A stretch of DNA of 43,576 nucleotides, taken from the NCBI GenBank assembly GCA_041547605.1, contig JBFEUB010000003.1, forward strand, positions 1 to 43,576, written 5' to 3'. Source of the stretch: Desulfobacteria bacterium. Lineage in GTDB: Bacteria > Desulfobacterota > Desulfobacteria > Desulfobacterales > C00003060. The notes below the pieces were generated by a model, which saw nothing but the letters and a program-made list of their open reading frames with translations, searched no databases and was not told where the DNA came from. The translations under genes were made by a program, and so were the position numbers. Numbering within the stretch: position 1 is the first letter of the stretch; the number at the start of each line of letters is the position of its first letter. Positions 11,266 through 41,890 of this stretch are shown here, in pieces.

Positions 11266-11329
11266 TTGTGGTTGGGGTGTTGATTCTTGCGATTGAGGTT
11301 TTTTCCTGTCGAACTTTAGATGGGATTTG

Positions 11330-14300: not shown

Positions 14301-15085
14301 ACTTGTCGGGAAGGCTTCCCATGTCCGACTTTGAGTCTGATTTTGGTATGAAGGGGACTGCTCCCAACATGCTGAGCGCTTTTTTCGATTGCATTGGAAA
14401 AATGATCGATGCCATGGCGAGGCCGATTGACGCTATCAAACACCAAGCCAAAACAGTGACGGTAGGCACGAGCAGGATTGTGGAGAAGATACAGGGCCTT
14501 CTCTTTGAAGCCCTGCAACAATATGGGTTCAGCGAAAACCAGCTGACAAACTTGAATGTTCTCGTCCTGAGACGCTTACAGGAAGTTGTTGCCGAGATCA
14601 TGGGGACTACCGTTTACAGAATTGAAGGTCTGAACTTCTTGGGAGAACCGGTGGAGGATTCTACCATCCATCTCATCAAAAAAGAGGGGAGTGCCGCGGA
14701 TCTCGTCTCCCGCGTAGAGACGGATAACAGACTGGTGGGTACCAAGCGGATCATCGTAAAAAACGGAAATGTCTTCATCGGCACAGGAAGAAGGGACAAT
14801 CGAAGCATTCTAGCCGTACCAGTCTTGTCAACCGGTACTAAAATTGACTACCTCCTGCTGTTCAATGTTGGATTTCGAAAAGAGGTCGCACTTGAAAAGA
14901 AAGTAACCGCGTTGGGTGGGAAATATCATCACATCCGAAATATTGTTGAGGAGACAAGCATCGCCTGGAAGGATGCGTATCTCAACCTTCTTAAGATTGA
15001 AGAGCTTTTTGGAATGTCTGCTGAGAAGATTGCCGAGGCGATTGTTTCCAATGTTCAGGATGAAGTTGAGGTTTCAACCGACTAA
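11330..15085 (+). CDS. Giant GlmS-like glutamine-fructose-6-phosphate aminotransferase (Ntn glutaminase + 2 SIS domains, with large insertions and extensions)
   Basis: CGITG, LDRLEVRGRDSAG, GHTRWA, LNGDIDN, TDT, TQSGTTTDT, EMSVASTKAY, KLSELCY, AKTVTV parallel GlmS motifs in order. About twice the normal GlmS length. Confidence 0.8.
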   Translation: MVILEKIKRLLVKKGLTGLYFGRCLATVPEGSLVLFPYAPGVFNCGITGILAFKGGGSARGVDSPVQELAGMVEGLAECAWNAVEEERIGLEDHYLGGEKVLGKMKPLCGSLKTEDRFYEVFSNIGDQDRLSRLCSTLQDVIETEERALIQKTGRLAPNAYELISLRIVHLKDVLWSLKHEVLENVEKVKDLGNFTEYENTPIAVKLLKRINLVFNNLDRLEVRGRDSAGISLFFVLDESVFSELKQRLQKASLLEELSTRQTDKVLVNRNIRITNRGSSVSLVFTYKIAAEVGSLGDNVKYLRRQVREDKVFQHLIRFPHLYQTMVGHTRWASVGEITEANCHPLDNFGMELDDPQDRDHTGVSNSDSAAGIIHVCLNGDIDNYQNLRRDYERETGKSIASVITTDTKIIPLQVEKYFKAGNTLEGSFRLAVNDFDGSHAIAMHTDIAPGRIFLAQKGSGQAMFVGLAEDCYIPASEIYGFVEETSRYIKLDGDKVTQGQSGETQGQIFVLDQDSDGGIEGITAMHYDGTPIELTEKDVKETEIASRDIDRQNYPHYFLKEILESPESFEQTVQNRVAILEHDGKRYPQVLIDGSVITPRLEEAVRERTLRNIFFIGQGTAGVAAAGCAELLRCYLKGTNLRVSSLKASEFSGFMVDDTLEDTLVVAITQSGTTTDTNRAIDMARERGAHTLAIVNRRDSDITFKVDGVLYTSTGRDIEMSVASTKAYYSQIAAGSILGLKLAHLTSSRTDDFVLAEIEHLLSIPAAMKALLVNHKEIGGSAETLAVTKHYWAVVGSGPNKVSADEIRIKLSELCYKTISSDVVEDKKHIDLSSEPLIFVCAAGNREDVVSDIVKDTAIFKAHQAVPIVVTSEGEHRFDPYADAVIRVPEVQERFAPIINTLAGHIWGYYAALAINAESRFLFDFREQINEHVASSMERDMDVYETVLDEAFREKIARFYAAFKERIRRGRYATALALNTASDLTLLLKYLSGRLPMSDFESDFGMKGTAPNMLSAFFDCIGKMIDAMARPIDAIKHQAKTVTVGTSRIVEKIQGLLFEALQQYGFSENQLTNLNVLVLRRLQEVVAEIMGTTVYRIEGLNFLGEPVEDSTIHLIKKEGSAADLVSRVETDNRLVGTKRIIVKNGNVFIGTGRRDNRSILAVPVLSTGTKIDYLLLFNVGFRKEVALEKKVTALGGKYHHIRNIVEETSIAWKDAYLNLLKIEELFGMSAEKIAEAIVSNVQDEVEVSTD

Positions 15086-25077: not shown

Positions 25078-26457
25078 ATGAAGTCATTGCAAGACAACTG
25101 CGGTGTGTTCGGTTTGTATTCAGAAACCGAATGTGTGCAGGATATATTTCAGGGAATCGATTTTCTTCAGCACCGGGGGCAGGAGTACTGTGGGATTGCC
25201 ACCTTTGATAAGGGTATTCGCATAGTAACGCATTACGGAAAAGCAGCCAATACGTTCAGGGACCAAGAATTGGATTACTTAAAGGGGACTTGGGGCATAG
25301 GCCATGTGAGTCTGCGGGAACGGCAGCCAGTGAGGTGGCGGTCCCGATTGGGTGAGATTGCCGTGGCATTTGGCGGCAACATTGTCAATGCTCATGAGCT
25401 GATCGAAGAAATGAAGAATCGGGGTAGGGCCTTCTATGATGGTTACAATGTCGAAATAATTTCTAAGATTATTATGGAGGAAAGGGATGTTGTAGCGGGC
25501 ATCCGCGCCCTCTCTAAGATCATTAGAGGGGCCTATTCCCTCGTGGTTTTGACGAGGGACGGCATTTATGCTGCCAGAGATATCTTCGCATTTCGACCGC
25601 TCGTTTTGGGTCAGGGTCTCGGCAAGTATGTTATTGCATCCGAGTCTCGCGCTATTCAGAATTTGGAGATGGAATTCATTCGAGATGTTCGGCCGGGGGA
25701 AATCCTGCTGGTGAACGATAAGGGGTTTCAAACTCTTGCACAGCTTGATTCGCCCCGTAGGGCCCATTGCGCATTTGAATGGGCCTACACGGCAAGCCTC
25801 GATTCAATTATTAATGGAGTCTATGTTCAGGAAGCTCGGAACCGATTGGGTGGGAGCTTGGCACAACGGGATATAGATGAAGGAGACCTCGAGGTAGACA
25901 TTGTAGCGGCCGTGCCAATGTCTGGGATCGGGCATGCACTCGGATACCACAAGCGATCCAAGATTAGCTACCAGGAGGTGTTCCTTTACAACCGGTATGC
26001 AGACCGGAGCTATACGCAGTCAAACCAAGCTGCCCGGGAAAAGATGGCGAAACGAAAGCTCTCTGTATTGCAGCATGCTGTGAGAGGCCAGCGTGTTGTC
26101 CTTTGCGATGACTCGATCGTCCGAGGCACCCAGATCCTATACAAGGTGCGGGATCTCAAAGAGGCTGGTGCTCAAGAGGTGCATGTGCGAATTGCCTGTC
26201 CTCCCCTCATGTATCCCTGTGATTTCGGCATATCCACCCGCACTTATGAAGAGTTGGCAGCCAGGCGGCATTTCAAAACAGGCAATATCACTTCTATGAA
26301 AAAGCTGAGGAAGTTGGAAGCATTGATTTCCGAAAAGATCGGTGCAGACTCTGTCAAATACAACAGCCTCGATGCCTTTGTTTCAGCTTTAGGCATCCCG
26401 AAACAAGAACTCTGCCTGAAGTGCTTTGATGGTCTTGACCCCACAGAAACCCAATAA
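25078..26457 (+). CDS. PurF-like phosphoribosyltransferase with degenerate glutamine-binding site
   Basis: CGVFG, LQHRGQE, PRPP motif LCDDSIVRGT and Fe-S cysteines are kept. GHVRYST is replaced by GHVSLRE, HNGN by FGGN and DSE by NVE. Confidence 0.85.
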   Translation: MKSLQDNCGVFGLYSETECVQDIFQGIDFLQHRGQEYCGIATFDKGIRIVTHYGKAANTFRDQELDYLKGTWGIGHVSLRERQPVRWRSRLGEIAVAFGGNIVNAHELIEEMKNRGRAFYDGYNVEIISKIIMEERDVVAGIRALSKIIRGAYSLVVLTRDGIYAARDIFAFRPLVLGQGLGKYVIASESRAIQNLEMEFIRDVRPGEILLVNDKGFQTLAQLDSPRRAHCAFEWAYTASLDSIINGVYVQEARNRLGGSLAQRDIDEGDLEVDIVAAVPMSGIGHALGYHKRSKISYQEVFLYNRYADRSYTQSNQAAREKMAKRKLSVLQHAVRGQRVVLCDDSIVRGTQILYKVRDLKEAGAQEVHVRIACPPLMYPCDFGISTRTYEELAARRHFKTGNITSMKKLRKLEALISEKIGADSVKYNSLDAFVSALGIPKQELCLKCFDGLDPTETQ

Positions 26458-26661
26458 ATCTGGCCAGACATTCATGTCACATCACCCTCCTGGATAAAGG
26501 CTCTCGCCCGTCACTTGGCTCTATGTGTGGCATCTAAAAACAGATAAGGCCTTGCGCCAAAGCGATTGATACGCCATGGACAGACGACCGATCGAACCGC
26601 TGCCCCAGCGGGCTTCATCGACTTACTGATACATTGCCTATCAGGCCCAGTCGCTTAACCC

Positions 26662-26690
26662 TTGACAGTGCGGTCGGACACCAATATATT
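26662..26690 (+). promoter_or_regulatory. Putative sigma70 promoter of the GAF-ANTAR gene
   Basis: TTGACA-17 nt-TATATT, followed 7 nt later by ATG 26698. Confidence 0.65.
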
Positions 26691-26697
26691 TAATATT

Positions 26698-27393
26698 ATG
26701 CCAGATATCGAGGCTTCTGAAAGACATATCGAAGCCCTCACCCGAATCAGCAAGGCGATTACCTCAGAGCGTTACATAGAGGACGTTCTGCGACTTGTGG
26801 TTACGGTGACGGCTAAGACCATGCGTTCCAAGATTTGCTCTCTTTGGCTCTTGGATGAAAACGAAAATGCCTTACAGCTTCGGGCAACCCAGAGCATTAG
26901 CGAAGACTATCTGAAGGAACGGTCTCTGAAAATTGGGGAGGGCATTGCAGGGCAGGTGGCCCTGACCCAAGAGGCCAGGTCCGTGTTGAATGTTTTAGAT
27001 GAACCCGATTACAAGGAGAAGGAACTAGCCAGGAATGAGGGACTGGTTTCAATGCTGAGCGTTCCGATGGTGGTCAAAGACAGGGTCGTTGGCGTGATCA
27101 ACTGCTACACATCCGAACCTCATGAGTTTACAGAAACCGAGAAGAATGTGTTGACCACCGTGGCCAATGCAGCAGCCGTGGCCATTGAAAATACAGAGCT
27201 GATGGTAAAAACCAGAGTGATTCAAGAGGAGTTGGAGGCAAGAAAGCTTATCGAGAGGGCAAAAGATTTGTTGATGACGCGTCGGGGGTTGTCGGGGGCG
27301 GACGCATATCGGTGGATTCAACGACGAAGTATGGATGTGCGCAAGTCCATGAAGGAAATTTCAGAGGCAATAATATTGACCGACGATATGTAA
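26698..27393 (+). CDS. GAF-ANTAR RNA-binding antitermination regulator
   Basis: GAF (IGEGIAGQVA, SMLSVPM, VVGVINCY) plus ANTAR (LEARKLIERAKDLLM...AYRWIQRRSMD..KSMKEISEAII). Confidence 0.92.
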   Translation: MPDIEASERHIEALTRISKAITSERYIEDVLRLVVTVTAKTMRSKICSLWLLDENENALQLRATQSISEDYLKERSLKIGEGIAGQVALTQEARSVLNVLDEPDYKEKELARNEGLVSMLSVPMVVKDRVVGVINCYTSEPHEFTETEKNVLTTVANAAAVAIENTELMVKTRVIQEELEARKLIERAKDLLMTRRGLSGADAYRWIQRRSMDVRKSMKEISEAIILTDDM

Positions 27394-27444
27394 GCAACAC
27401 TTAAAATCTCGTGGGGTATCACAGGGCCCGAAGCACAAAAGCTG

Positions 27445-27473
27445 TTGACAGGTGTGAGCTTTATTAATAAAAT
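27445..27473 (+). promoter_or_regulatory. Sigma70 promoter for the glutamate-synthase-like/redox operon
   Basis: TTGACA (27445-27450), 17-nt spacer, TAAAAT (27468-27473). Confidence 0.8.
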
Positions 27474-27485
27474 ATGAGTGGTTTC

Positions 27486-27527
27486 AGGGTTACAATGGTG
27501 TGACTCTCAAACGACGACACTGAGGTC
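27486..27527 (+). promoter_or_regulatory. ANTAR-target RNA (dual hexaloop hairpins)
   Basis: P1 AGGGTTAC-AATGGT-GTGACTCT and P2 GAC-ACTGAG-GTC. Both loops are 6 nt with A1 and G4 and are closed by C-G. P2 overlaps the 5' arm of the terminator. Confidence 0.8.
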
Positions 27528-27561
27528 CAACTGACCCACATGGGTAGTTGGGCTTTTTTTT
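27525..27561 (+). terminator. Intrinsic leader terminator (attenuator)
   Basis: GTCCAACT(g)ACCC-acat-GGGTAGTTGGGC stem followed by T8, located between the promoter and ATG 27593. Confidence 0.85.
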
Positions 27562-27592
27562 GTCAAAAACAGGAATTAAGGAGGAATAGGCC

Positions 27593-29158
27593 ATGTCATT
27601 TAGTAAACCAAATCGCAGTGCAGCCACCTTAACGACTACTAGGGTAGCACCTGCGCCGATCTCCGGCATCTGTGTCACATGTTTGGATGGTTGTGAGGGG
27701 CCGTGTGAGATCGGGCGATCCGCCCTCAGGGGGAGAGAGGTCATCTATCCCATCCCATTTGGAAAGATTACAGCTGGCTCTGAAAAGGATTATCCTGTTG
27801 ACTTTTCCCATTTGAATATCCAGGGGACTGCCGTCGGGTCCGTGGGCGTTGAGGCCGATCCTGACAAAGCGACCTTTCCGGTTGTGGATACCACCACGGC
27901 ACTCGGTGCTGATGGAAGCATCAAACTTGATTTTCCGGTGTTCACGGGCGCCGTGGGATCAACCGACATTGCCCGGATCAACTGGACAGATGTGGCTGTC
28001 GGTGCTGCCATATCCGGGGTCATCGTAGTAGCCGGAGAAAATATCTGCGGCATGGACCCCCAGGCTGAGTTTAGTAATGGAAAAATTTTGCGGTCCCCCG
28101 AGATGGAGCGCAGGGTCCATGCGTTCAGGGAATGGTATAATGGCACGGGAGGGATCATCGTCCAGGCCAATGTTGAAGATACCAAGTTAGGCGTGCCGGA
28201 ATATGTGATTGAAAAGCTGGGCATAGAAATCTTTGAACTGAAGTGGGGACAGGGTGCAAAAGACATTGGAGGCGAGGTGAAGCTCCCGTCCATAGAGCGG
28301 GCCCTTCAGCTGAAGGAACGGGGCTACATTGTGCTTCCGGACCCTACCAATCCTGCTGCCCAGAAGGCTTTCAAGGCAGGGGGCATTACCGAGTTTGAGC
28401 GCCATTCCCGTCTCGGGATGGTTGATGAGGATGCCTTCCATAAGGAAGTGGAGCGCCTCCGCAGCGTTGGGGCAAAGTACGTTACTTTGAAGACCGGGGC
28501 ATATCGGCCTGCTGACCTGGCCCGCGCCATTAAGTATTCTTCTGATTCAAAGATTGATCTGTTGACCATAGATGGGGCTGGCGGAGGCACTGGGATGAGC
28601 CCCTGGCGGATGATGAACGAATGGGGCATTCCTACGGTGCAACTAGAGTCTCTGGCCTATCAGATGTGTGAGAAAATGAGGGCCAAAGGGGCCTATATTC
28701 CACCCATTGCCATTGCAGGGGGGCTCTCCCTGGAAGACCATATATTTAAGGCCATCGCGCTAGGCGCTCCTCACGTGAAAGCCATTTGTCTAGGAAGGGC
28801 CATGTTGACCGCCGCCATGGTGGGCAAGACCCATGGTAAATTGATGGCACAGAAGATGGAAGATGAAGGGGAAGACCCGAGCGATGGATACCTCAAGCTT
28901 TTTGCTGTGGCAGCCCAACTCAAAGAACGGTTCGGCGATGATTTTGCCAAGCTCCCGGCGGGAGCCATTGGTATGTATTCCTACATTGACAGACTGAAAC
29001 AAGGTTTGCAACAGCTCATGGCAGGAGCCCGAAAGTTTGCGCTTCAGTACATCGACCGTGATGACCTTGTTGCCCTTACCCGGGATGCAGCAGAGGTCTC
29101 TGGTATTGCCTACGTCATGGAGAGTGATGCTGAGGAGGTTGAAAAGATTTTGGGCTAG
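27593..29158 (+). CDS. Stand-alone FMN-binding glutamate synthase family protein (GltB FMN domain only)
   Basis: ELKWGQGAKDIGGE, VTLKTG, TIDGAGGGTGMSP, EWGIPT, IAGG, FKAIALGA. N-terminal CxxCxxxCxxxC. No Ntn amidotransferase or GXGXG domain. Confidence 0.85.
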   Translation: MSFSKPNRSAATLTTTRVAPAPISGICVTCLDGCEGPCEIGRSALRGREVIYPIPFGKITAGSEKDYPVDFSHLNIQGTAVGSVGVEADPDKATFPVVDTTTALGADGSIKLDFPVFTGAVGSTDIARINWTDVAVGAAISGVIVVAGENICGMDPQAEFSNGKILRSPEMERRVHAFREWYNGTGGIIVQANVEDTKLGVPEYVIEKLGIEIFELKWGQGAKDIGGEVKLPSIERALQLKERGYIVLPDPTNPAAQKAFKAGGITEFERHSRLGMVDEDAFHKEVERLRSVGAKYVTLKTGAYRPADLARAIKYSSDSKIDLLTIDGAGGGTGMSPWRMMNEWGIPTVQLESLAYQMCEKMRAKGAYIPPIAIAGGLSLEDHIFKAIALGAPHVKAICLGRAMLTAAMVGKTHGKLMAQKMEDEGEDPSDGYLKLFAVAAQLKERFGDDFAKLPAGAIGMYSYIDRLKQGLQQLMAGARKFALQYIDRDDLVALTRDAAEVSGIAYVMESDAEEVEKILG

Positions 29159-29249
29159 CGGGTTCTTGGCCAGTGTGGAGATTTGGAAGGTCCCAACCCA
29201 ATGAACGCTGCTCTCGAATGAACGCGATAAACCTAAGGAGGTAATAGTT

Positions 29250-29459
29250 ATGTTGAACATTATCTGTAAACACAACTGCAAGTCATGTTATGCTGAGCCT
29301 GTTTGCGCTGTGGATGCAATCATAGACCAGCAAGGTTCCATATATGTGGAGACCGAAAAATGTATTGGCTGCGGGTGTTGTCGCACGGCATGCGTGACCT
29401 TTGGGTATGATCAGGCTTTGAAAGACAAGACTGTAGAGTGGCTGAAGGGTGCTGCGTAG
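29250..29459 (+). CDS. Small 4Fe-4S ferredoxin-like protein
   Basis: SD AAGGAGGT. CKHNCKSC...CAVDAI and CIGCGCCRTAC motifs. Confidence 0.8.
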   Translation: MLNIICKHNCKSCYAEPVCAVDAIIDQQGSIYVETEKCIGCGCCRTACVTFGYDQALKDKTVEWLKGAA

Positions 29460-29467
29460 TATCTGAC

Positions 29468-29561
29468 TGGATTAATGGAGTGTTGGCGTGGTAGGCTTTA
29501 AGAACTACATGAATCATGCTGTCACTTTATGGATGCAATACTCTAGTGCTCCATCACTCCA
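29468..29561. repeat. Inverted octamer tandem-repeat array (TGGAGTNN / NNNACTCC type)
   Basis: tggattaa-tggagtgt-tggcgtgg ... aatactct-agtgctcc-atcactcc. Confidence 0.6.
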
Positions 29562-29649
29562 TCTGCGCAGTATAGGCAAGGTGGCAACAAGAAGCATCAT
29601 TTCAATTTGTTGTATAGTGTCCTAACCCTGAACGTCTTGGGGTTTTCTT

Positions 29650-31464
29650 ATGTACGGATATACCGGTCGTTGCCTTCGGGTCAACCTGTCCGATGAGAAG
29701 CACTCGGTTGAAGTAATTTCACCCGAGTTGCTGACCCGATTTGTAGGCGGACGGGGTCTTGGGGTCAAGATGTACTCAGATGAGGTCGGCCCTAAAACGG
29801 ACCCCTTGGGGCCAGAGAACAAATTGGTTTTTGTCTCGGGTCCCCTTGTCGGCACGGGTGCCGTCACTGGGGCCTCTTGCAATGTGATCACAAAGAGCGC
29901 CCTGTCCGGAACCATTGGTTGTGCAAAGATGCGGGGGCACTTTGGGGCAGAACTGAAGTTCGCCGGATTCGACATGATCATCGTTGAAGGGAGGGCGGCA
30001 TCACCGGTCGTCCTGTCTATCCTGGACGATAAGGTGAGTATCCAGCCGGGGCTTCAATATTGGGGCCGCACTACGTCAGAATCAGAGGAAATCTTTAAGA
30101 AAAATCTCACCGACGATTGGGCGGCCCGGGAGACATACCTGGTCTCTATCGGCCCAGCAGGCGAGAAATTAGTCCCTTTGGCGAACATCATTAATGACGG
30201 ATTCTTATCCGTTGGGGGTGCGGGCATTGGCGCTGTCATGGGATCCAAGAATCTCAAGGCCATCGCCGTCAGGGGGAGCCGTTCGTTGTCAGTTGCAGAC
30301 AGCGATCGGTTTGTACGGGTCGTTACGAACCTGATCAATAAATTGAACAGCGCCCCACTCACTTCTCATTCCATGTCCGCGTGGGGATCCGCCTTTTTTG
30401 TGGATCTCTGTTATCAGAAGGGGATACTGCCTCAGAAGAATTTTCTGGGTGCCCCTTTTACGGAATTAAGAGAAATTGGGACCGAGGCCCTGTCGAATGC
30501 CTTTGCTTTTAGGAGCAGCGGGTGTTTTGCTTGCCCTATTGCCTGTCTCAAGAAGACGGATGTGAATAATCCCCTCTTTAAAGGCAGGGGCATGGCGCCA
30601 ACTTACTGGGCTATTGGCGCTCTTGGGCTTAACTGTGGGATTAAAGACCTGAGCATCATTGGTATGGCGAATATTATCTGCGCCGAGATGGGACTCGATC
30701 CAATTGCCGCGGCTGGCACCGTGGCTACGGGTATGGAGTTGATGGAAAAGGGGATCGCTTCCCAGGACAACTTAAAGCTTGCACTGCGGTTTGGGCAGGG
30801 AGAGGACCTTCTTCAGGCCCTGACGCTCATGGCCACAAAAAAAGGTTACGCCGAGAGAATTGGAAAAGGGGCGCGGGCCTTGGCCGAGGAATACGGTCAA
30901 CCCGAGTGTTTTATGGGCGTTAAGGGGATGCCTATGGCTCCCTTTGATCCGAGAGCTATTCAGGGCATGGGTTTGCATTTTGCTACCTGTAATTACGGGC
31001 CCCATCATCTGTACGCCTACACCTTCATCGAAGAGGTGTTGAATGTCCACGAGGAACTGGATCCCTGGAGCACCGAGGGCAAACCTGAACTGGTTAAGCG
31101 ATACCAGGATATGGCGGCGATCATGGATTCGCTGGGGCTTTGCAACTGGCCGCTGCTGGGGCTCAAGTTCAATAATCTCGTTCCCATGATCAATAGTGGT
31201 CTGGGCACTGACCACCGTGCAGATGATCTCTTGGGGATCGGAGAACGAATCTGGAACCAGGAAAGACTGTTTAACATGGGAGCCGGATTTCACAATTCGC
31301 ACGACACATTGCCCAACAGATTTTTCAAAGAACCGATTTCAGATGGGCCGGCTCAGGGGCAGATTAGCAAGGTGGACGAGATGCTTCCCAAGTACTATGA
31401 GATTCGAGGCTGGAGCGAGAAAGGTGCGCCCAAGGCCGACAGATTGGAGGCCTTGGAGCTGTGA
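29650..31464 (+). CDS. Aldehyde:ferredoxin oxidoreductase (AOR)-family protein with degenerate tungstopterin/catalytic motifs
   Basis: End-to-end AOR architecture (GGRGLG, GAELKFAG, SIGPAGE, GAVMGSKNLKA, CFACPIAC, DPR, DSLGLC, ERLFN, YYEIRGW). Several cofactor residues are substituted. Confidence 0.9.
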   Translation: MYGYTGRCLRVNLSDEKHSVEVISPELLTRFVGGRGLGVKMYSDEVGPKTDPLGPENKLVFVSGPLVGTGAVTGASCNVITKSALSGTIGCAKMRGHFGAELKFAGFDMIIVEGRAASPVVLSILDDKVSIQPGLQYWGRTTSESEEIFKKNLTDDWAARETYLVSIGPAGEKLVPLANIINDGFLSVGGAGIGAVMGSKNLKAIAVRGSRSLSVADSDRFVRVVTNLINKLNSAPLTSHSMSAWGSAFFVDLCYQKGILPQKNFLGAPFTELREIGTEALSNAFAFRSSGCFACPIACLKKTDVNNPLFKGRGMAPTYWAIGALGLNCGIKDLSIIGMANIICAEMGLDPIAAAGTVATGMELMEKGIASQDNLKLALRFGQGEDLLQALTLMATKKGYAERIGKGARALAEEYGQPECFMGVKGMPMAPFDPRAIQGMGLHFATCNYGPHHLYAYTFIEEVLNVHEELDPWSTEGKPELVKRYQDMAAIMDSLGLCNWPLLGLKFNNLVPMINSGLGTDHRADDLLGIGERIWNQERLFNMGAGFHNSHDTLPNRFFKEPISDGPAQGQISKVDEMLPKYYEIRGWSEKGAPKADRLEALEL

Positions 31465-31476
31465 TCTTTAAGAAGG

Positions 31477-31540
31477 GGTTGAGTGGTTAAGTCGTTTTCA
31501 GCCCAACCACTTAACTAGTCGACTAATCAACTAATCGACT
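31477..31540. repeat. Inverted octamer tandem-repeat array (GGTTGAGT / ACTYAACY type)
   Basis: ggttgagt-ggttaagt ... gcccaacc-acttaact-agtcgact-aatcaact-aatcgact. Confidence 0.65.
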
Positions 31541-31561
31541 TCGAAACTGCGAGAGAGGCAT

Positions 31562-31936
31562 ATGCCGAAAATAGTAATTGATCACAACAAATGCACCGGC
31601 TGTAGGCATTGTGAGGTCGCTTGTTCTCTGAATCATGTAACGGGTATTGCCAATCCTCGAAGAGCCCGAATCAGGGTTTTTCGGGAGGGGAACACCTTCT
31701 TTCCCGTGATTGCCGGTCCCTTTGTGGACGCGGCTTGCACATCGAAGCTTACCATAAAGGCGGGTGATCAGACATACGATATGTGTGTGCTCTGCCGGGC
31801 TACGTGCCCACAGAAATCCTTTTTTTTAGAGGCTGAGACCGGCTTTCCCCTTAAGTGCGATTTCTGCGGTATTCCCCCTAACCCTTCCTGCGTTCGCTGG
31901 TGCAATTCCGGAGCCCTGGAGTTGGTGGAGGATTAG
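31562..31936 (+). CDS. BamC-like 3x[4Fe-4S] electron-transfer subunit
   Basis: KCTGCRHCEVACS..NPRRARIRV..PVIAG..C..YDMCVLCRATCP..F.E.ETGFPLKCDFC..PSCVRWC. The pattern matches the remembered BamC sequence but lacks its C-terminal tail. Confidence 0.75.
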   Translation: MPKIVIDHNKCTGCRHCEVACSLNHVTGIANPRRARIRVFREGNTFFPVIAGPFVDAACTSKLTIKAGDQTYDMCVLCRATCPQKSFFLEAETGFPLKCDFCGIPPNPSCVRWCNSGALELVED

Positions 31937-31938
31937 CT

Positions 31939-32005
31939 ATTTGGAAATTGGAAAATTTGGGAATTAGTCCCTCAATCCCTCAATTCCATAATCCCTCAAT
32001 TCTCA
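31939..32005. repeat. Inverted octamer tandem-repeat array (ATTKGGRA / AATCCCTC type)
   Basis: atttggaa-attggaaa-atttggga ... agtccctc-aatccctc-aattccat-aatccctc-aattctca. Confidence 0.65.
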
Positions 32006-32009
32006 TGAT

Positions 32010-35000
32010 ATGAAGCATAACAAGGATAGTCACAACATCATCGGTGCCCTCATGGTATTAGGCGGTGGCATTGCCGGCATCCAGGCGTCTATGGATCTGG
32101 CTGATGCTGGTTTCCGAGTGTATTTGGTCGAGGCATCTGCGGCCATAGGTGGCGTGATGGCAGCTCTCGACAAGACCTTTCCTACCAATGACTGTTCGAT
32201 CTGAATCTTAGCCCCCAGACTCGTTGAGTCTGCCAGGCATCCCAACATCGAAATTCTAACCAATGCGACTTTGAGGGAAGTTTCGGGGTCTGCCGGAAAC
32301 TTTAAGGTGACAGTGCTGAAACAACCCCGCTACGTGGATGAAACAAAATGCACGGCCTGCGGGATTTGCGCCACCTATTGCCCCGTTCTGGTTCCTGATC
32401 CCTATGACGAAAACATGGCTCATCGCAGAGCGATCTACATCCCTTACACACAGGCGGCTCCATCGGCCTATGTGGTCGACCCATACCATTGCCTTTTTCT
32501 GAATAGGCAAGAATGCAAGCAGTGTACCCGAACTTGTGAGGCCAAAGCCATCAATCTTGACCAGAAGCCCGAGATAATAACCTATGAAGTGGGGGGGCTG
32601 ATCCTGGCTCCCGGCTTCTCAAGGTTTGATCCTGGGCGGTTGCCTGCCTATGGGTATGCGGATTGTCTCAATGTAGTTACTGGTTTAGAGTTTGAGCGGA
32701 TCTGCTGTGCGTCTGGGCCGTCCATGGGAAAGATCCAGAGGCCCTCGGACCGAAATAAACCCGAGAAGATAGCGATTGTCTTATGTGTAGGCAGCCGGGA
32801 CAAGGCTTGCGGCAATCCTTACTGTTCCTCGGTTTGTTGTAAGTATGCGATCAAGGATGCAATCGTGGCGTTAGAACATGAGCCTGATTTAGACATCACG
32901 ATATTTTTCATGGACATTCGCACGTACGGCAAGGATTTTGAGAAGTTTTATCAGCGTGCGAAAGCAGCGGGTGTGAAGTTTGTGCGTAGCAGGGTCTCTG
33001 AGATTAGAGAGGACCCCCGAACCAATGATCTCACCTTAAAGTACGTGACAGAAGATGGGGGCCTGAGGAAAGACACCTTTAACTTGGTGGTGCTGGCCCA
33101 CGGGCTTGAGGCTCCTGCGGGCAGCAGTAACCTCGCCTTGGCAGCAGAGATCGGACTGAACCAGTACAATTTTTGCGAGACGGGCCTGTTTCGACCACTT
33201 GATAGCACCAGAGAAGGCATCTTTGTCGCCGGTGCGTTTCAAGGACCCAAATCGATTCCCGACAGCGTGATCCAGGCTGGTGGTGCTGCCGCCTCGGCAG
33301 CCGAGCTGTTGGCTGCGGTCCGTGGAACGCTGGTCAGAGAGAAGACGTACCCTGAGGAGCGCACAGACGCTGACGCACCATCGAAAATTGGGGTGTTTGT
33401 ATGCCACTGCGGCAAGAATATTGCCGGGGTGGTGGATGTAGAAGCAGTGATCAAATACGCAGAGAGCTTGCCTGATGTGGCGATGGTGGAACGTAACCTC
33501 TACTCTTGTTCTTCGGATACCCAGGCTTTGATTGCAAAAACCATAGCTGAGAAGGGTTTGAATCGTGTGGTGGTGGCCGCCTGCACGCCCAGAACGCATG
33601 AGGTGCTTTTTCAAGACACCCTGAGAGAAGCGGGCCTCAACAAATGTCTTGTTGAGATGGTTAATATTCGGGATCAATGCTCATGGGTGCATATGCATGA
33701 GCGGGAGGCAGCCACGGAAAAGGCCAAGGAACTTGTCCGGATGGCTGTTGCCAAGGCGAGACAGATTCAGCCGCTTCCAGAGACAACTATTGAGGTCATT
33801 CCGAAGTGTCTTGTCATCGGTGGCGGACTCTCGGGTATGACCGCGGCCCTCAGCTTAGCCCGGCAGGGCTTTGAATGTTACTTGGTGGAACGTAGCAGTG
33901 ATCTTGGAGGCAATCTCCGGCACACCTATTTTACGTTGGAGGGGCCGGATCCCCAAGAACACCTTAAGCGACTTATTGAGCAAGTGGAATCAAACGATAA
34001 GATTCATCTCTTCACGAAGACCGCCATTCAAGAGGTTGCAGGCTTTGTTGGCAACTTCAAGACCGTCCTGTCTTTCGGGAGCGGAACAGGAGTAAAGACA
34101 GAAGAAATCGAACACGGAGCCATCATTGTGGCCACAGGGGCCACGGCCTATGAACCCGACGCGTATCTGTATGGCCGGCATAAAAACGTGGTGCTTCAGC
34201 AAGTATTGGAAGAAGGGCTAGCCCTTGGGAAGGTCGATCCGAAAGACCTTAAACAGGTCGTCATGATCCAGTGTGTGAGCTCAAGGGACGAGACCCATAC
34301 CTATTGCAGTGCGATTTGTTGCAACCAGGCGATCAAGAATGCCTTGAAGATTAAAGAACTTAACCCTGAAGCCAATGTAAGCATCTTGTATCGCGATGTG
34401 ATGAGTTACGGCTTTAGTGAGGATTACTACAGTCTTGCCAGGGATCAAGGCATTGTTTTTATCCGCTACAGCCCGGATAAAAAGCCCAAGGCAGAGAATG
34501 TTGAGGGCAAGGTGCGCGTGACAGTTAAGGACCCGATAGTGAAGCAGAATGTGATCATTCATGCTGATCTCTTGGCTTTAAGCACGGCCATGGTTCCATA
34601 TGACAACAGGGACTTCGTTGAAAAGCTGAAGGTACCGCTATCCTCCGATCAGTTTTTCTTAGAATCTCATGCACAATTGAAACCCGTGGATTCTTATGTG
34701 GATGGTATCTATCTTTGCGGCAAAGCGCAGTTTCCCAAGCCCATCAATGAGTGCATCGCCCAGGCCAAGGCTGCTGCAGCCAAAGCTGCCATTTTGTTGG
34801 CCAAGGGCTATGTGATGGCAGAACCGATCATTGCCTCGTGCGACATGGACACCTGCATGGGATGCGGTATCTGTGCCTATTTGTGTCCATATAGTGCCAT
34901 CCAAATGACGAAGGTGGGCAAGCTGAAAAAAGCCGCAATTGTTGCAGCAGCCTGCAAGGGATGCGGTGTGTGTGCCTCTTATTGTCCAACCAGGTCCATT

Positions 35001-35066
35001 GCCATGGGCCGCTTCACGGATGAGCAGATTGAGGAGCAGATTAGGGCTTTTGGGGAAGGAAGTTAG
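32010..35066 (+). CDS. hdrA: Selenocysteine-containing tandem HdrA-like (BamE-like) flavo-iron-sulfur protein, about 1018 aa
   Basis: ORFs 32010-32204 and 32271-35066 are in one frame joined by TGA 32202 in [12 protein letters not shown][U]ILAP. Two GGGxxG FAD domains, YCS.VCC motifs, VFVCHCG, ferredoxin domains. Confidence 0.9.
32216..32232 (+). promoter_or_regulatory. Putative bacterial SECIS hairpin (hdrA)
   Basis: CAGACTC-GTT-GAGTCTG, 11 nt after the UGA; the apical loop starts with G. Confidence 0.7.
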
Positions 35067-35067
35067 G

Positions 35068-35179
35068 CATTGAGGAGGAAATTTTTTTCATAAGCCGTGA
35101 TAATATTCAAAAAGCTTGATTGAAGGACCTTGCCAAGTTTACGGTATCACGGCTTGTTCGAAAAACCCCCTCCTCAATG
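35068..35179. repeat. 112-nt intergenic inverted repeat
   Basis: Perfect 11-bp outer arms CATTGAGGAGG/CCTCCTCAATG and perfect 11-bp inner arms AAGCCGTGATA/TATCACGGCTT. Confidence 0.75.
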
Positions 35180-35211
35180 AAGGGAAGATTACGAGTAGAA
35201 GGAAAGGGATC

Positions 35212-35961
35212 GTGCCAAAATCATTTGAGCCCCGAATTCTCGGTTTCTTATGCCACTGGTGCTGCTATGCGGCAGCTGATGCAGCCGGGGTGTCGCGTTT
35301 TCAGTATCCGCCCCATGTCCGTGTCATCCGGGTGATGTGCACGGGAAGGATAGACGCTGTGTTTCTAGTGGATGGGTTTGTCAACGGGGCTGACGGCGTC
35401 TTTGTTGGTGGCTGACACCTGGGCGAGTGTCATTACCGGGACGGTAATTACGAAGCCATCAACAAGTTCCATCTGGTCAGGCGTATCCTTGATGATCTTA
35501 AGGTCAATCCGGATAGATTATCCCTGGAGTGGGTTTCTGCAGCCGAGGCGCCACGTTTTGTCAACGTCATCACAGAATTTACCGGGCGTATCAGAGATCT
35601 TGGCTCGCTCGGAACGAGTGAAGGGCTGGACGCGCATCATCTCAGGATTAAGTTAAAGGCCGCCAAGATGGCTCTTGAGGGTAAGCGGCTGCGAATGGTC
35701 TTTGCAAGGCAGGCCAAGTACAGGAAGCATGAGGGGGCCTACCGTGAAATTCCGTCTGATCATAAGCTGCATGCAGAAATGGATAGGGCCCTTTCAGATG
35801 AGCTGGCTACCAACGGATTGCTTCTCTATTTGCAGGACAGTCCCCGCAGGGTGGATGAATTGGCAGGGCTTTTGGAGGTCTCTCCGGACGATGTGGTCGC
35901 CTGCTTTAAGAAGCTTGAAAAGAAGGGGCTCGTGGAGTCGAACAGGCTTGTTGGTTATTAG
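35212..35961 (+). CDS. Selenocysteine-containing MvhD/FlpD-like (BamF-like) 2Fe-2S protein with C-terminal extension, 249 aa
   Basis: GTG start. FLCHWCCYAAAD.AG, IRVMCTGR, GADGVFVGG[U]HLGECHY, with TGA 35413 at the conserved Cys. The frame stays open to 35961. Confidence 0.88.
35432..35448 (+). promoter_or_regulatory. Putative bacterial SECIS hairpin (mvhD-like)
   Basis: ATTACCG-GGA-CGGTAAT, 16 nt after the UGA; G-rich apical loop. Confidence 0.7.
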
Positions 35962-36771: not shown

Positions 36772-37257
36772 ATGGGTTTTGAACGGGTTGATGAGATATT
36801 AGACAGATATGGACACAGGCATGAAGCCCTGATAAGCATGTTGCAGGATGTCCAGCGTTTGGAGAATTACCTGCCCCAGGAGACGCTTCAATATATTGGC
36901 AAGAGGTTAGAGGTCCCACTTTCAAGGATTTATTACATCACTACCTTTTATAAGTCCTTTAGCTTGGAGCCTAGAGGTAAACACATTGTGAAGGTCTGTC
37001 TTGGAACAGCCTGCCATCTCAATGGTGCGTTGCAGAATCTGGAACAGATTCGACGGGCCCTTGATATTCGTGAGGGGGAGACAACTGGAGACAAAATGTT
37101 TTCGTTGGAAACCGTCAACTGTGTGGGTACCTGTGCCTTGGCTCCGGTCACTGTCGTGGGTGACAAGTATTACGATGCGGTGACACCAGCAAAGGTTGAA
37201 AAAATCATATCGAATTATTCGGGAAAAGCAGAGGATGCCGCGGGTGAAGAAGATTAA
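36772..37257 (+). CDS. NuoE/HydC-like 2Fe-2S subunit (BamG-like)
   Basis: LQDVQ..YLP, TFYKSFSLEPRGKH, VCLGTACH, TVNCVGTCALAP. Confidence 0.92.
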   Translation: MGFERVDEILDRYGHRHEALISMLQDVQRLENYLPQETLQYIGKRLEVPLSRIYYITTFYKSFSLEPRGKHIVKVCLGTACHLNGALQNLEQIRRALDIREGETTGDKMFSLETVNCVGTCALAPVTVVGDKYYDAVTPAKVEKIISNYSGKAEDAAGEED

Positions 37258-40588: not shown

Positions 40589-41890
40589 CTATTTTGACTT
40601 AATCCACAGTAATCTCGCCACGTTGGGACCTGGATTTCTCCATTCACTCGGCATCTCAGAGGTCAGGTAGATCACATCCCCTGACCGCACGGTATAGGTG
40701 GCTTTACGAAGAGACATCTTGAGTTTCCCGGAAAGGAGGTAGCCCATCTCCTCCCCCTTATGGACGAAGAAGTGGGCTGGAAGGTCGCGATTGGGTTCTA
40801 TTTCAATGATGTAGGGTTCCATCTTTGCCTGAAAATCTGGCGGGGTTAAAAGGCTTCCGTCCACCGAACCTTTGGGTAAATCAGGGAACCCGACACTTAC
40901 GGCTTCAGCCGCGGGGAAAATGATCCGTTTTTCCAGCTCAACGGACTGTTCAAACAAAGAACTGATGTCAACGGAAAGGACTTCGGCCATCTTTAGTAAT
41001 GCTGGCAAAGACGGGTAGATAATGTTTGCTTCGACCTGGGAGACGGTGCTGGGTGTTACCCCCACCAGTTTTGCCAGTTCAGACTGCGATAAGCCGCGCT
41101 TAATCCGCAGTTCTTTGATACGAAGGCCCAGGTTCACGTGACCATGGCCATGCTTTTCCATATCAAAAGTGATCGTGAGGTCCTTGGTCCAGTACCGATG
41201 AGGTTCATCAATGTCCTCTGTGCCGCGATCTTCGGCCTTGAGGATCGTCAGTGCGGTGGTGCCCCTCTTTATGGAAAGGTCGATGGCCACCTGGGCAATC
41301 TGATTGATCTGGGCCCTGAGTGCCTCCGAATGCGCCAACTTTTCCATGATCCAATATGCAATCGTATCCAGCTCATAGAGCCGGGGGCAGGAGTGTGAAT
41401 AGAACTTGAGAATGGCCTGTTCGCCTCCCCAGATTTTCTGCATGCCAGTCAGGCTTTCGAATATTAGGCGGACATCGCTGTGCATGGTTTCCAGGAGACC
41501 GTAGAGGACACCCATGAAATGGTCTATGTCCCGGGGCCTCTCGACCAGCTGGACTTGGCAGACCTCTGGTTCCAGGTCAGGCTCTTCATAGAATTTCATA
41601 AAAACGGGGCTGCAGGCCCCCTTGCCACAGCTAAAACCGTCAAGGATGGTGAAGTCAGGGCTTTCAGCCAGGGGTCCTAATTTGTCAAGAAGATTTTTAG
41701 GGGAGCGGTCAAAGCTGATATAGATGACCGGCTTTTGTAGGGCCAAAGAAGTCTCCAAAAAGTTCAGACAAAATGCTGAAGCCAGATTGCCAGAATCATC
41801 GTGCCAGACCACATTGTCCCCAATGAAAAGACCTCCCAAAAGGCGATCCAAAAAGCTGACTCCAGAGCTAACGCGCGTTTTTTCTGACAC
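40589..41890 (-). CDS. Transcriptional regulator: KaiC/RecA-like domain + XRE HTH + cupin
   Basis: SSGVSFLDRLLGGL..GD (KaiC-like start), LGLRIKELR..GLSQSELA..VGVT.STVSQVE..PSL (XRE), HKGEEMGYLLSG..GDVIY (cupin). Confidence 0.85.
   Translation of the reverse strand: MSEKTRVSSGVSFLDRLLGGLFIGDNVVWHDDSGNLASAFCLNFLETSLALQKPVIYISFDRSPKNLLDKLGPLAESPDFTILDGFSCGKGACSPVFMKFYEEPDLEPEVCQVQLVERPRDIDHFMGVLYGLLETMHSDVRLIFESLTGMQKIWGGEQAILKFYSHSCPRLYELDTIAYWIMEKLAHSEALRAQINQIAQVAIDLSIKRGTTALTILKAEDRGTEDIDEPHRYWTKDLTITFDMEKHGHGHVNLGLRIKELRIKRGLSQSELAKLVGVTPSTVSQVEANIIYPSLPALLKMAEVLSVDISSLFEQSVELEKRIIFPAAEAVSVGFPDLPKGSVDGSLLTPPDFQAKMEPYIIEIEPNRDLPAHFFVHKGEEMGYLLSGKLKMSLRKATYTVRSGDVIYLTSEMPSEWRNPGPNVARLLWIKSK

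Follow-up and report, generated by a model that had tools for sequence, protein, structure and literature searches.

We analyzed a 43,576-nucleotide stretch of DNA from a Desulfobacteria bacterium (assembly GCA_041547605.1, contig JBFEUB010000003.1, positions 1 to 43,576; hereafter the window) with a focus on the gene at 29650..31464 on the plus strand, which encodes a 604-residue protein of the aldehyde ferredoxin oxidoreductase (AOR) family. Judged by its sequence, this AOR-like protein is without the canonical residues of the tungstopterin/Mg site and keeps the ligands of the [4Fe-4S] cluster. Because the site is lost with the cluster kept, the gene is under purifying selection, and the partnership with a ferredoxin and a catalytic protein is conserved, we read the protein as a pterin-free Fe-S adaptor or scaffold, which would wire an enzyme with flavin mononucleotide (FMN) to a flavin-based bifurcation module. 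We give this reading a probability of about 0.55. A first-pass annotation of the same DNA had offered two options, a cofactor-free adaptor or scaffold and an enzyme whose site has been remodelled, and the same lines of evidence support that interpretation.

The protein had been described at the first pass as a full-length product without frameshift, colinear with the AOR of Pyrococcus furiosus (Pf) and with CxxCxxxC and DSLGLC intact, and all of this was borne out. The reading frame is open over its full length of 604 residues. The Pfam domains AFOR_N (1.8e-65, residues 6–209) and AFOR_C (9e-107, residues 224–604) cover the protein from end to end. In a phmmer search, P. furiosus AOR (1aor_A) was its best solved relative (E = 3.9e-149, residues 1–602 against 1–599), followed by the large subunits of A. 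mobile WOR1, C. autoethanogenum AOR and A. aromaticum AorB; BamB (4z3w_A) lies much farther away (E = 4.8e-40). The alignment to 1aor_A places C292, C295, C299 and C498 on the [4Fe-4S] ligands C288, C291, C295 and C494 of the Pf enzyme. The AlphaFold2 (AF2) model, built without ligands from a shallow alignment of 26 sequences, has a predicted TM-score (pTM) of 0.75 and the three-domain AOR fold. Its matches in a structure search are AOR-family chains only, with TM values of 0.80–0.81 to 9mqx_D, 9g7j_A and 1aor_A. The stretches of low local confidence (pLDDT) fall on the loops that enclose the cofactor in real AORs, and we draw no conclusion from this overlap. The other two AOR paralogues of the same genome (contigs C60 and C82) retain the canonical residues.

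Six motifs around the cofactor are substituted. In Pf numbering, TGGRY has become TGASC (R76S, Y77C), ANSGG has become AKMRG (N93K, S94M, G95R), HRAAGRGG has become FLSVGGAG (H181F, R182L, A183S, A184V, R186G), GPEYES has become APTYWA (E311T, E313W), DELGLDTIS has become AEMGLDPIA (D338A, T344P), and NRGGCHIK has become NYGPHHLY (R444Y, G446P, C447H and K450Y, with H448 kept). All six swaps had been noted from the sequence at the outset, and each was reproduced in the HMMER alignment to 1aor_A. In this alignment, the residues of the Mg/pterin-phosphate site are replaced and the cluster ligands are kept. When 1.84 billion cluster representatives were scanned exhaustively with HMMER, 2297 matched at E ≤ 1e-30, of which the best 150 were inspected. 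The broken first DxxGLD motif that had been pointed out is real in that D338 is replaced by Ala; it is less diagnostic than first assumed, as the first residue of this motif is Asn in 80 and Asp in 49 of the 150 representatives.

According to a 2025 review (PMC12096430), the main chain at Asn93 and Ala183 holds the Mg2+ that bridges the two pterin phosphates in AOR. Thr243, Glu313, Tyr427 and His448 are given there as conserved second-shell residues, Glu313 and Tyr427 are said to occur in every AOR known, and Glu311, Tyr312 and Tyr452 are said to be highly conserved as well (PMC12096430). The two Mg-ligand positions read K93 and S187 in the AOR-like protein. Its second-shell positions read S247 (a conservative change), W320, F432 and H453, so that two of the four are lost. 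At the positions of Glu311, Tyr312 and Tyr452 it has T318, Y319 and Y457: the glutamate is lost and both tyrosines are kept. The second DxxGLC motif and the equivalents of D343 and His448 are also retained. All solved AORs, FOR, WOR5 and BamB are more canonical in the alignment than the AOR-like protein.

The clade of the AOR-like protein comprises 19 loci at 63–89% identity in one-genome-per-species contigs, where the next AORs fall to 43% or less. Its hosts are Desulfobacteria, Desulfobulbaceae/Desulfocapsaceae and two Nitrospirota. For comparison, 18 clade members were set against 61 canonical AORs; the latter include many close kin from a few genera and are hence not independent. R76, G95, R182, R186, E311 and R444 are 100% conserved in the 61 canonical AORs. 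The first five of these columns hold Ser, Arg, Leu, Gly and Thr in 18/18 clade members, and the R444 column holds Tyr in 16/18. Among the 150 family representatives, the canonical residue prevails in the same columns (Arg or Lys at 76 in 129, Gly at 95 in 118, Arg at 182 in 104, Arg at 186 in 135, Glu at 311 in 126, and Arg at 444 in 114). The residues of the Mg/pterin-phosphate site that are lost here are 85–100% conserved across the 61 canonical AORs and dominant in the 150 representatives. Between clade and canonical AORs, 38 columns are at least 85% conserved in both groups on different residues and 138 conserved columns are common to both, which indicates that the substitution pattern is not chance drift.

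The replacement residues are themselves conserved. There are at least 120 homologue clusters at 73% identity or more; the best 120, which were examined, are 73–100% identical and come mostly from metagenome-assembled genomes (MAGs) of Desulfobacterales. TGASC occurs in 111 of the 120 and SGASC in the other 9. AK[MLIVT]RG is present in 120/120, FLSVGGxG in 117/120, APTY[L/W/M]A in 114/120 and N[YF]GPHHLY in 113/120. The position of W320 (Pf Glu313) holds Leu in 81, Trp in 29 and Met in 4. DSLGLC is found in 118/120, and the four cluster cysteines are present throughout (CxxCxxxC in 120/120, the cysteine of DSxGLC in 120/120). The dN/dS ratio of the gene has a median of 0.090 and a range of 0.053–0.143 (18 orthologues; 50 of 153 pairs with unsaturated dS). 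In the 41 codons of the substituted motifs, pN is 0.058, against 0.167 in the rest of the gene, with equal pS (0.74 and 0.73). Purifying selection on the AOR-like gene is strong, and the replacement residues are its most constrained part. Whether homologues share the substitutions under such selection was a question left by the first pass, and near-invariance in 120 homologues with a dN/dS of about 0.09 answers it.

Contigs from RNA-seq libraries (four libraries of a single study) match three parts of the AOR-like gene at 99% identity or more. The same contigs also match, in part, the regulator, FMN, ferredoxin, HdrA-like, MvhD-like, NuoF-like and NuoG-like genes of the window. They are consistent with transcription of the cluster as weak evidence, since DNA carry-over is possible and the contigs show neither levels nor ends.

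The AOR-like protein belongs to a wider group of degenerate AORs. Among the best 150 of the 2297 matches, the nearest representatives are P0121 (53% identity) and P0122–P0126, P0130, P0131, P0137 and P0160 (39–46%). Each of them is without the canonical Arg, Asn, Gly and Glu and has its own set of replacements, and all keep the four cysteines. In the ranked order, canonical sequences begin at P0127. The degenerate representatives come from MAGs of Chloroflexota and of Syntrophobacter-like and other 'Deltaproteobacteria'. A tree of 159 sequences (FastTree, LG+gamma) contains an all-degenerate clade of 19 tips with a support of 0.935 and a 23-tip clade that includes three intermediates with a support of 0.974; the smallest clade that contains all 21 degenerate sequences has 28 tips. 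The degenerate AOR-like proteins are monophyletic. The tree fits a single ancient loss of the cofactor site that would have been followed by diversification. Position 77 holds Cys, Ala, Leu, Tyr or Trp across the sister degenerate lineages, and the motif equivalent to NYGPHHLY is different in every one of them. That sister lineages refilled the same lost positions with different residues speaks against a common new ligand or cofactor site.

The gene neighbourhood of the AOR-like gene is conserved. Of the 16 clade loci that leave space for the FMN gene, 15 have it directly upstream of the AOR-like gene, and in the 16th locus (L020) a C-terminal remnant of 138 residues of the FMN protein, at 80% identity, is found. 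The FMN protein is 78–95% identical among the clade loci. A BamC/WorS-like ferredoxin directly follows the AOR-like gene in 18/19 clade loci, and an HdrA-like gene comes next after the ferredoxin in 15/19. The full set of Mvh-, HdrC- and NuoEFG-like genes recurs in L013, L018, L019, L020 and L022. Around this constant core the electron-input module differs: it is NuoEFG-like in most loci, an Mvh-type NiFe hydrogenase is nearby in L014, and a GltD-like protein is present in L016. The minimal unit consists of the FMN gene, the AOR-like gene and the ferredoxin gene. It is preceded by NrpR in L134 and L136 and by a sigma54-GAF activator in L135, and a minimal unit without Hdr or Nuo genes is also found in L133.

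We also searched 401 genomes, an even sample of the phylum. The FMN protein was matched (E ≤ 1e-40) in 216 of them. AOR-like matches of at least 69% identity were found in seven genomes besides that of the window, and 7/7 abut the FMN gene. One AOR-like match at 54% (G349) and three at 41–43% (G205, G235 and G039) abut it as well, and these divergent partners are likewise motif-degenerate. In L131 (G187:C5), NuoE/F/G-like genes lie directly upstream of an FMN gene (56% identical) beside NrpR, with no AOR-like gene; this locus may represent an NADH-linked form of the same FMN enzyme. Some loci appear to be damaged. In L022, a Nitrospirota MAG, frameshifts that are probably assembly errors interrupt all three of the FMN, AOR-like and HdrA-like genes, and an in-frame TGA in its FMN gene was rejected as a selenocysteine codon because the reading diverges after about residue 57, as expected of a frameshift in the MAG. 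The AOR-like match in L021 ends at residue 443 within an 858-residue frame, which is probably also an assembly error.

The upstream gene encodes a GltB-like protein that is the putative catalytic partner (Table 1). It has an N-terminal CxxCxxxCxxxC motif (C27, C30, C34 and C38), and its Atlas neighbours all carry PF01645. Sequence and profile searches of the protein against solved structures returned only de novo TIM-barrel designs. The window contains a nitrogen context of GlnA, NadE, CarAB, the GAF-ANTAR regulator and a sigma54-GAF activator, and NrpR, GDH, GlnA, GlmS and sigma54-GAF activators occur beside orthologues of the FMN gene. Because of this nitrogen-regulatory context (NrpR, GAF-ANTAR, sigma54-GAF, GlnA and GDH), we consider 2-oxoglutarate/glutamate chemistry for the FMN protein, and the context points to a glutamate-synthase-like reductive amination of 2-oxoglutarate. 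Elsewhere in the genome (G000), contig C124:1025-2810 carries a Glu_synthase FMN-domain gene (198 bits) beside a GXGXG gene, probably the genome's conventional split glutamate synthase. Docking of residues 1–602 of the AOR-like protein with residues 27–424 of the FMN protein (both cut) gave a score of 0.00/0.01, which neither supports nor opposes binding. A possible parallel that also points to such chemistry comes from G. sulfurreducens, where the sigma54-controlled operon GSU1235-1239 encodes a 'glutamate synthase-related protein', a pyridine-nucleotide-disulphide oxidoreductase and an Fe-S protein (PMC2725144).

We propose that the AOR fold no longer binds the tungsten-bis-pyranopterin/Mg cofactor and still holds a [4Fe-4S] cluster. 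Together with the BamC/WorS-like ferredoxin, which would carry three clusters, it may associate into a module for electron transfer and docking. This module may have been inherited from an Hdr-linked tungsten AOR and would now serve the upstream GltB-like FMN/Fe-S protein. Electrons could pass between NADH (at the NuoEF-like subunits), the HdrA flavin, the ferredoxin clusters, the cluster of the AOR-like protein and the FMN enzyme, whose substrate, to go by the genetic context, would be 2-oxoglutarate in a glutamate-synthase-like reaction. We speculate further that the cluster might be an electron-bifurcating glutamate synthase. NADH would then be oxidized at NuoEF, the HdrA flavin would split the electron pair between 2-oxoglutarate amination and ferredoxin reduction, and the AOR-like protein and the ferredoxin would be the wire or docking platform; the exergonic amination of 2-oxoglutarate at the GltB-like subunit would drive the endergonic reduction of ferredoxin. 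This elaboration is rather improbable.

Several observations weigh against the adaptor reading and the chemistry proposed for its partner. The Glu_synthase match of the FMN protein scores 52.5 bits (cut-off 20.4) and is partial, covering only profile positions 186–309 of 369. The AF2 model of the FMN protein (pTM 0.75) matched generic FMN TIM barrels in Foldseek at TM 0.33–0.40, and a profile of 16 orthologues did not find a solved GltS at E ≤ 0.01. Domain scans of the window proteins detected no glutaminase or GXGXG domain adjoining the FMN gene. The class-II amidotransferase at 25078..26457 was considered as the glutaminase of a glutamate synthase and rejected, as it is PurF-like (it scores 316 bits, where the cut-off is 350). 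The FMN protein of the window was likewise rejected as the sole glutamate synthase of the genome, given the separate Glu_synthase and GXGXG pair on contig C124. On the side of the AOR-like protein, R76, R182 and K450 reportedly contact the pterin phosphates in the AOR structure of 1995, and no open source for these roles was found. Every clade member found is from a MAG, and kin among them are not independent. Orthologues of the FMN gene (70–86% identity) often stand alone, beside an HTH-cupin regulator, GAF-ANTAR, GDH, GlnA or GlmS, and in five genomes with such a lone orthologue 19/19 AOR homologues look canonical. Because lone FMN genes exist with canonical AORs only, the FMN enzyme can work without the AOR-like protein, which together with its ferredoxin is an addition to it.

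The FMN gene and the AOR-like gene may thus be only co-regulated. In the strictest form of this idea, the AOR-like protein, the ferredoxin, HdrA/MvhD/HdrC and NuoEFG are a self-contained NADH:ferredoxin-type oxidoreductase that would feed the FMN enzyme through soluble ferredoxin, without binding it. The occurrence of the FMN gene alone in many genomes fits this, as does the 491-nucleotide spacer between the two genes in the window; the similarity of the FMN protein is 85–88% where the AOR-like gene is present and nearly as high (75–86%) where it is not. Against such a complex stand the three-gene units without Hdr or Nuo genes (L133, L134 and L136, the last two after NrpR), in which the AOR-like protein has no other obvious partner, and the adjacency of the two genes is kept across lineages that are only 40–54% identical. 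We regard an independent complex as improbable. The old pterin pocket might instead be remodelled so as to bind another cofactor, metal or substrate and still be catalytic, for example on an intermediate of the FMN enzyme. The near-invariance of the replacement motifs and their stronger constraint relative to the rest of the gene would be expected of such a site. Clade-invariant new residues (Cys77, Cys329, the His452-His453 pair, and K128, R140, K376, D526 and W157), which weigh against an adaptor, could mark it, and the equivalents of His448, Tyr312 and Tyr452 are retained. A pocket filled with side chains would, however, be a buried core and conserved for packing alone, and another protein is always there as catalytic subunit, either the FMN protein or a 2-oxoacid:ferredoxin oxidoreductase (OFOR). 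Above all, sister degenerate lineages with the same partners replaced the same canonical residues differently, for which reason we favour the adaptor over a remodelled site and hold the latter to be unlikely, if worth keeping in view.

A tungsten or molybdenum AOR that still functions with non-canonical cofactor binding is very improbable. The fold and length are intact, the second DxxGLC motif and the equivalents of D343 and His448 are kept, and the genome makes canonical AORs, so that it can probably synthesize the cofactor. The site has nevertheless lost all of its conserved basic residues, G95 has become Arg, the positions of Glu313 and Tyr427, which are universally conserved according to the review (PMC12096430), hold Trp or Leu and Phe, and every solved AOR, FOR, WOR5 and BamB structure is more canonical. 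A decaying pseudogene or annotation artefact would explain the loss of the catalytic motifs and nothing else. The open frame, a dN/dS of 0.09, over 120 homologue clusters with at least 73% identity and a synteny conserved in two phyla speak against decay, to which the RNA-library contigs (≥99% identity) over three parts of the gene add weakly. This explanation has next to no probability and was rejected on the selection result.

Degenerate AORs have more than one kind of partner. They accompany the remotely GltB-like protein, itself under nitrogen regulators, in the window and in three lineages. In two lineages, each with the same type of ferredoxin, they accompany OFORs. For the P0137 type, the gene order in L165 is ferredoxin, POR alpha, degenerate AOR, ferredoxin, POR gamma, delta and beta. 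In L164, L167 and L168, which are of the same type, the degenerate AOR is accompanied by HdrA-like and POR alpha genes, by another AOR-like gene that is truncated, and by HdrC/HdrB-like genes. These truncated AOR-like proteins (L164:14444-15787, L167:9454-10755 and L168:14660-15943) have about 430–450 residues with AFOR_N and a partial AFOR_C; their genes lie between POR alpha and a BamC-like ferredoxin, with the HdrC/HdrB-like genes after. We regard them as a predicted second, still more reduced derivative of AOR. In L169 the order is a pyridoxal phosphate (PLP) enzyme, a degenerate AOR 46% identical to that of the window, ferredoxin, and POR gamma, delta, alpha and beta. A set of ten more AOR-like matches (41–46% identity) comprises eight canonical proteins, one degenerate (L169) and one intermediate (L172). 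The canonical AORs of L170, L171, L173 and L178 (44–45% identical), which have all cofactor residues, are encoded in clusters with a BamC-like ferredoxin, HdrC, HdrA and MvhD. Such an Hdr-linked cluster, in which a tungsten AOR would feed an Hdr module, is a plausible ancestral arrangement, and the four AORs may form an undescribed Hdr-linked class of tungsten AORs in the phylum.

The other features of the window are listed in Table 1.

Table 1. Features of the window around the AOR-like gene, with coordinates and supporting matches.
Feature	Coordinates	Strand	Evidence
GAF-ANTAR regulator, putative RNA-binding antiterminator	26662..27393	+	Pfam GAF_2 3e-21, ANTAR 2.7e-17
GltB-like FMN/Fe-S protein ('GltBfmn'), 521 aa, putative catalytic partner	27593..29158	+	Pfam Glu_synthase 5.6e-14
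Intergenic spacer, 491 nt, FMN gene to AOR-like gene	29159..29649		
BamC/WorS-like polyferredoxin, 124 aa, 12 Cys	31562..31936	+	BamC 4z3w_E 1.5e-28
Double HdrA-like flavoprotein, 1018 aa, in-frame TGA 32202-32204 (likely selenocysteine, Sec)	32010..35066	+	read-through ORF
MvhD/VhuD-like protein, 281 aa, in-frame TGA 35413-35415	35116..35961	+	VhuD 9.6e-39, residues 38-164
HdrC-like di-cluster protein, 160 aa	36095..36577	+	Pfam Fer4_8, Fer4_17; NCBIfam HdrC 3.8e-18
NuoE/HoxE-like [2Fe-2S] protein	36772..37257	+	Pfam 2Fe-2S_thioredx 1.5e-49; NCBIfam HoxE, NuoE
NuoF-like NADH/FMN subunit, 633 aa	37196..39097	+	Complex1_51K 2.5e-44, NADH_4Fe-4S 5.5e-34; nuoF_fam 6.1e-142
NuoG N-terminal/HoxU-like Fe-S protein, 235 aa	39229..39936	+	Pfam Fer2_4, Fer4_7; NCBIfam HoxU 3.1e-36
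HTH_3 + Cupin_2 regulator (PuuR-like)	40592..41890	-	Pfam; NCBIfam PuuR 9.1e-16

After BamC, the further solved relatives of the ferredoxin are, in order, AorA (8c0z_C), the small subunit of WOR5 and WorS (9mqx_E). The double HdrA-like protein matches HdrA (5odc_A) in three stretches (E = 2.7e-192), and reading through the TGA lifts its NCBIfam HdrA2 score from 863 bits to 995. The in-frame TGA codons of the HdrA-like and MvhD-like genes align with cysteine positions of their families, and SelA is encoded in the genome; both are likely selenocysteine codons. No NCBIfam model covers the C-terminal extension of the MvhD-like protein, which is some 110 residues long (approximately 170–281); the matches end at residue 166. 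Many clade loci have an orthologue of the GAF-ANTAR regulator upstream of the FMN gene. Rfam gave no match at E ≤ 1 over positions 26000–32400, hence no known riboswitch or leader in the 491-nucleotide spacer. With an antiterminator-type regulator nearby, a leader or terminator target could sit in the spacer or before the FMN gene. The HTH_3 + Cupin_2 regulator also occurs beside GltBfmn in L013, L014, L016, L022, L119, L123, L124, L125, L129 and L132, and in L118 the helix-turn-helix (HTH) part only. Across positions 1–26457 of the window, genes for glutamine-dependent enzymes and nitrogen assimilation are packed unusually densely on one strand, in what looks like a 'glutamine-use' supercluster. 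It contains hisH/hisF-like genes, carA, guaA, two copies of carB, pyrG, the sigma54-GAF activator, glnA, nadE, two class-II amidotransferases (one PurF-like) and a 1252-residue protein with GATase and SIS domains. The latter, at 11327-15085, has only a weak GATase_6 and one SIS match in Pfam, so that most of its length carries no domain assignment, and is about twice the size of GlmS.

The tungsten AORs sensu stricto (1AOR, 9G7J, WorL 9MQX and AorB 8C0Z) have the same Pfam domains, length, fold and four cysteine ligands as the AOR-like protein, with a structure-based identity of about 37–40%. WorL and AorB are, like it, each paired with a small poly-ferredoxin subunit. The AOR-like protein differs from them in being without the Arg, Lys, Asn and Gly of the Mg/pterin-phosphate site and without Glu311, Glu313 and Tyr427, and its gene adjoins that of a separate FMN enzyme, whereas AORs sensu stricto act as the catalytic head. 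The class II benzoyl-CoA reductase BamBCDEFGHI of G. metallireducens, named 'Class IV WOR' in a 2026 classification (PMC13328260), follows the same gene logic as the window: an AOR-like large subunit, a BamC-like three-cluster ferredoxin, HdrA/MvhD/HdrC-like proteins and NuoEFG-like proteins. Selenocysteine codons in the Hdr/Mvh-like genes are a further likeness. The AOR-like protein is closer to AOR sensu stricto than to BamB and is without the tungsten-cofactor residues that BamB uses in catalysis. Compared with BamBCDEFGHI, the window adds the preceding FMN/Fe-S protein, has no aromatic-degradation genes nearby, and lies in a nitrogen-assimilation context.

Loss of a cofactor from a redox-enzyme fold has a counterpart elsewhere. 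NuoG/Nqo3 of complex I has the fold of a Mo-bisPGD enzyme, has lost the cofactor, and is an Fe-S subunit for structure and electron transfer. It presents the same concept in another superfamily, that of the DMSO-reductase/formate-dehydrogenase fold and not of AOR, and serves here as an analogy only. Glutamate synthases have interchangeable electron-input subunits, with NADPH-GltD, ferredoxin-dependent and F420-dependent forms. The FMN partner resembles them in its partial match to the Glu_synthase FMN barrel, its Fe-S motif, its nitrogen context and its varying redox modules. It differs in that its similarity to solved GltS is below profile detection and no amidotransferase or GXGXG domain is adjacent. 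The main texts of the open literature that was searched describe no pterin-less AOR-family protein and no gene arrangement of the present kind. The 2026 classification divides WORs into 92 clades and five classes, and in a term search of its text 'glutamate synthase', 'pseudo' and 'non-catalytic' have 0 occurrences (PMC13328260).

The AOR/WOR family is now treated as uniformly pyranopterin-containing. If our reading is right, a monophyletic and strongly selected group that shed the cofactor and kept both the Fe-S cluster and the partnership with the small subunit would be, by analogy, to AORs what NuoG of complex I is to the Mo-bisPGD enzymes. Such a group would show how Hdr-type bifurcating complexes may swap their catalytic heads. 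In a broader form of the rather improbable bifurcation reading, pairs of a pterin-less AOR and a ferredoxin would be a reusable adaptor that links ferredoxin-dependent 2-oxoacid enzymes (GltB-like or OFOR) to Hdr modules. 'AOR' annotations in MAGs of Desulfobacterota, Nitrospirota and Chloroflexota would need to be reread, as such proteins would not by default be aldehyde-oxidizing or tungsten-requiring. The finding would also point to an unstudied, nitrogen-regulated, glutamate-synthase-like system in the sulfate reducers of marine sediments.

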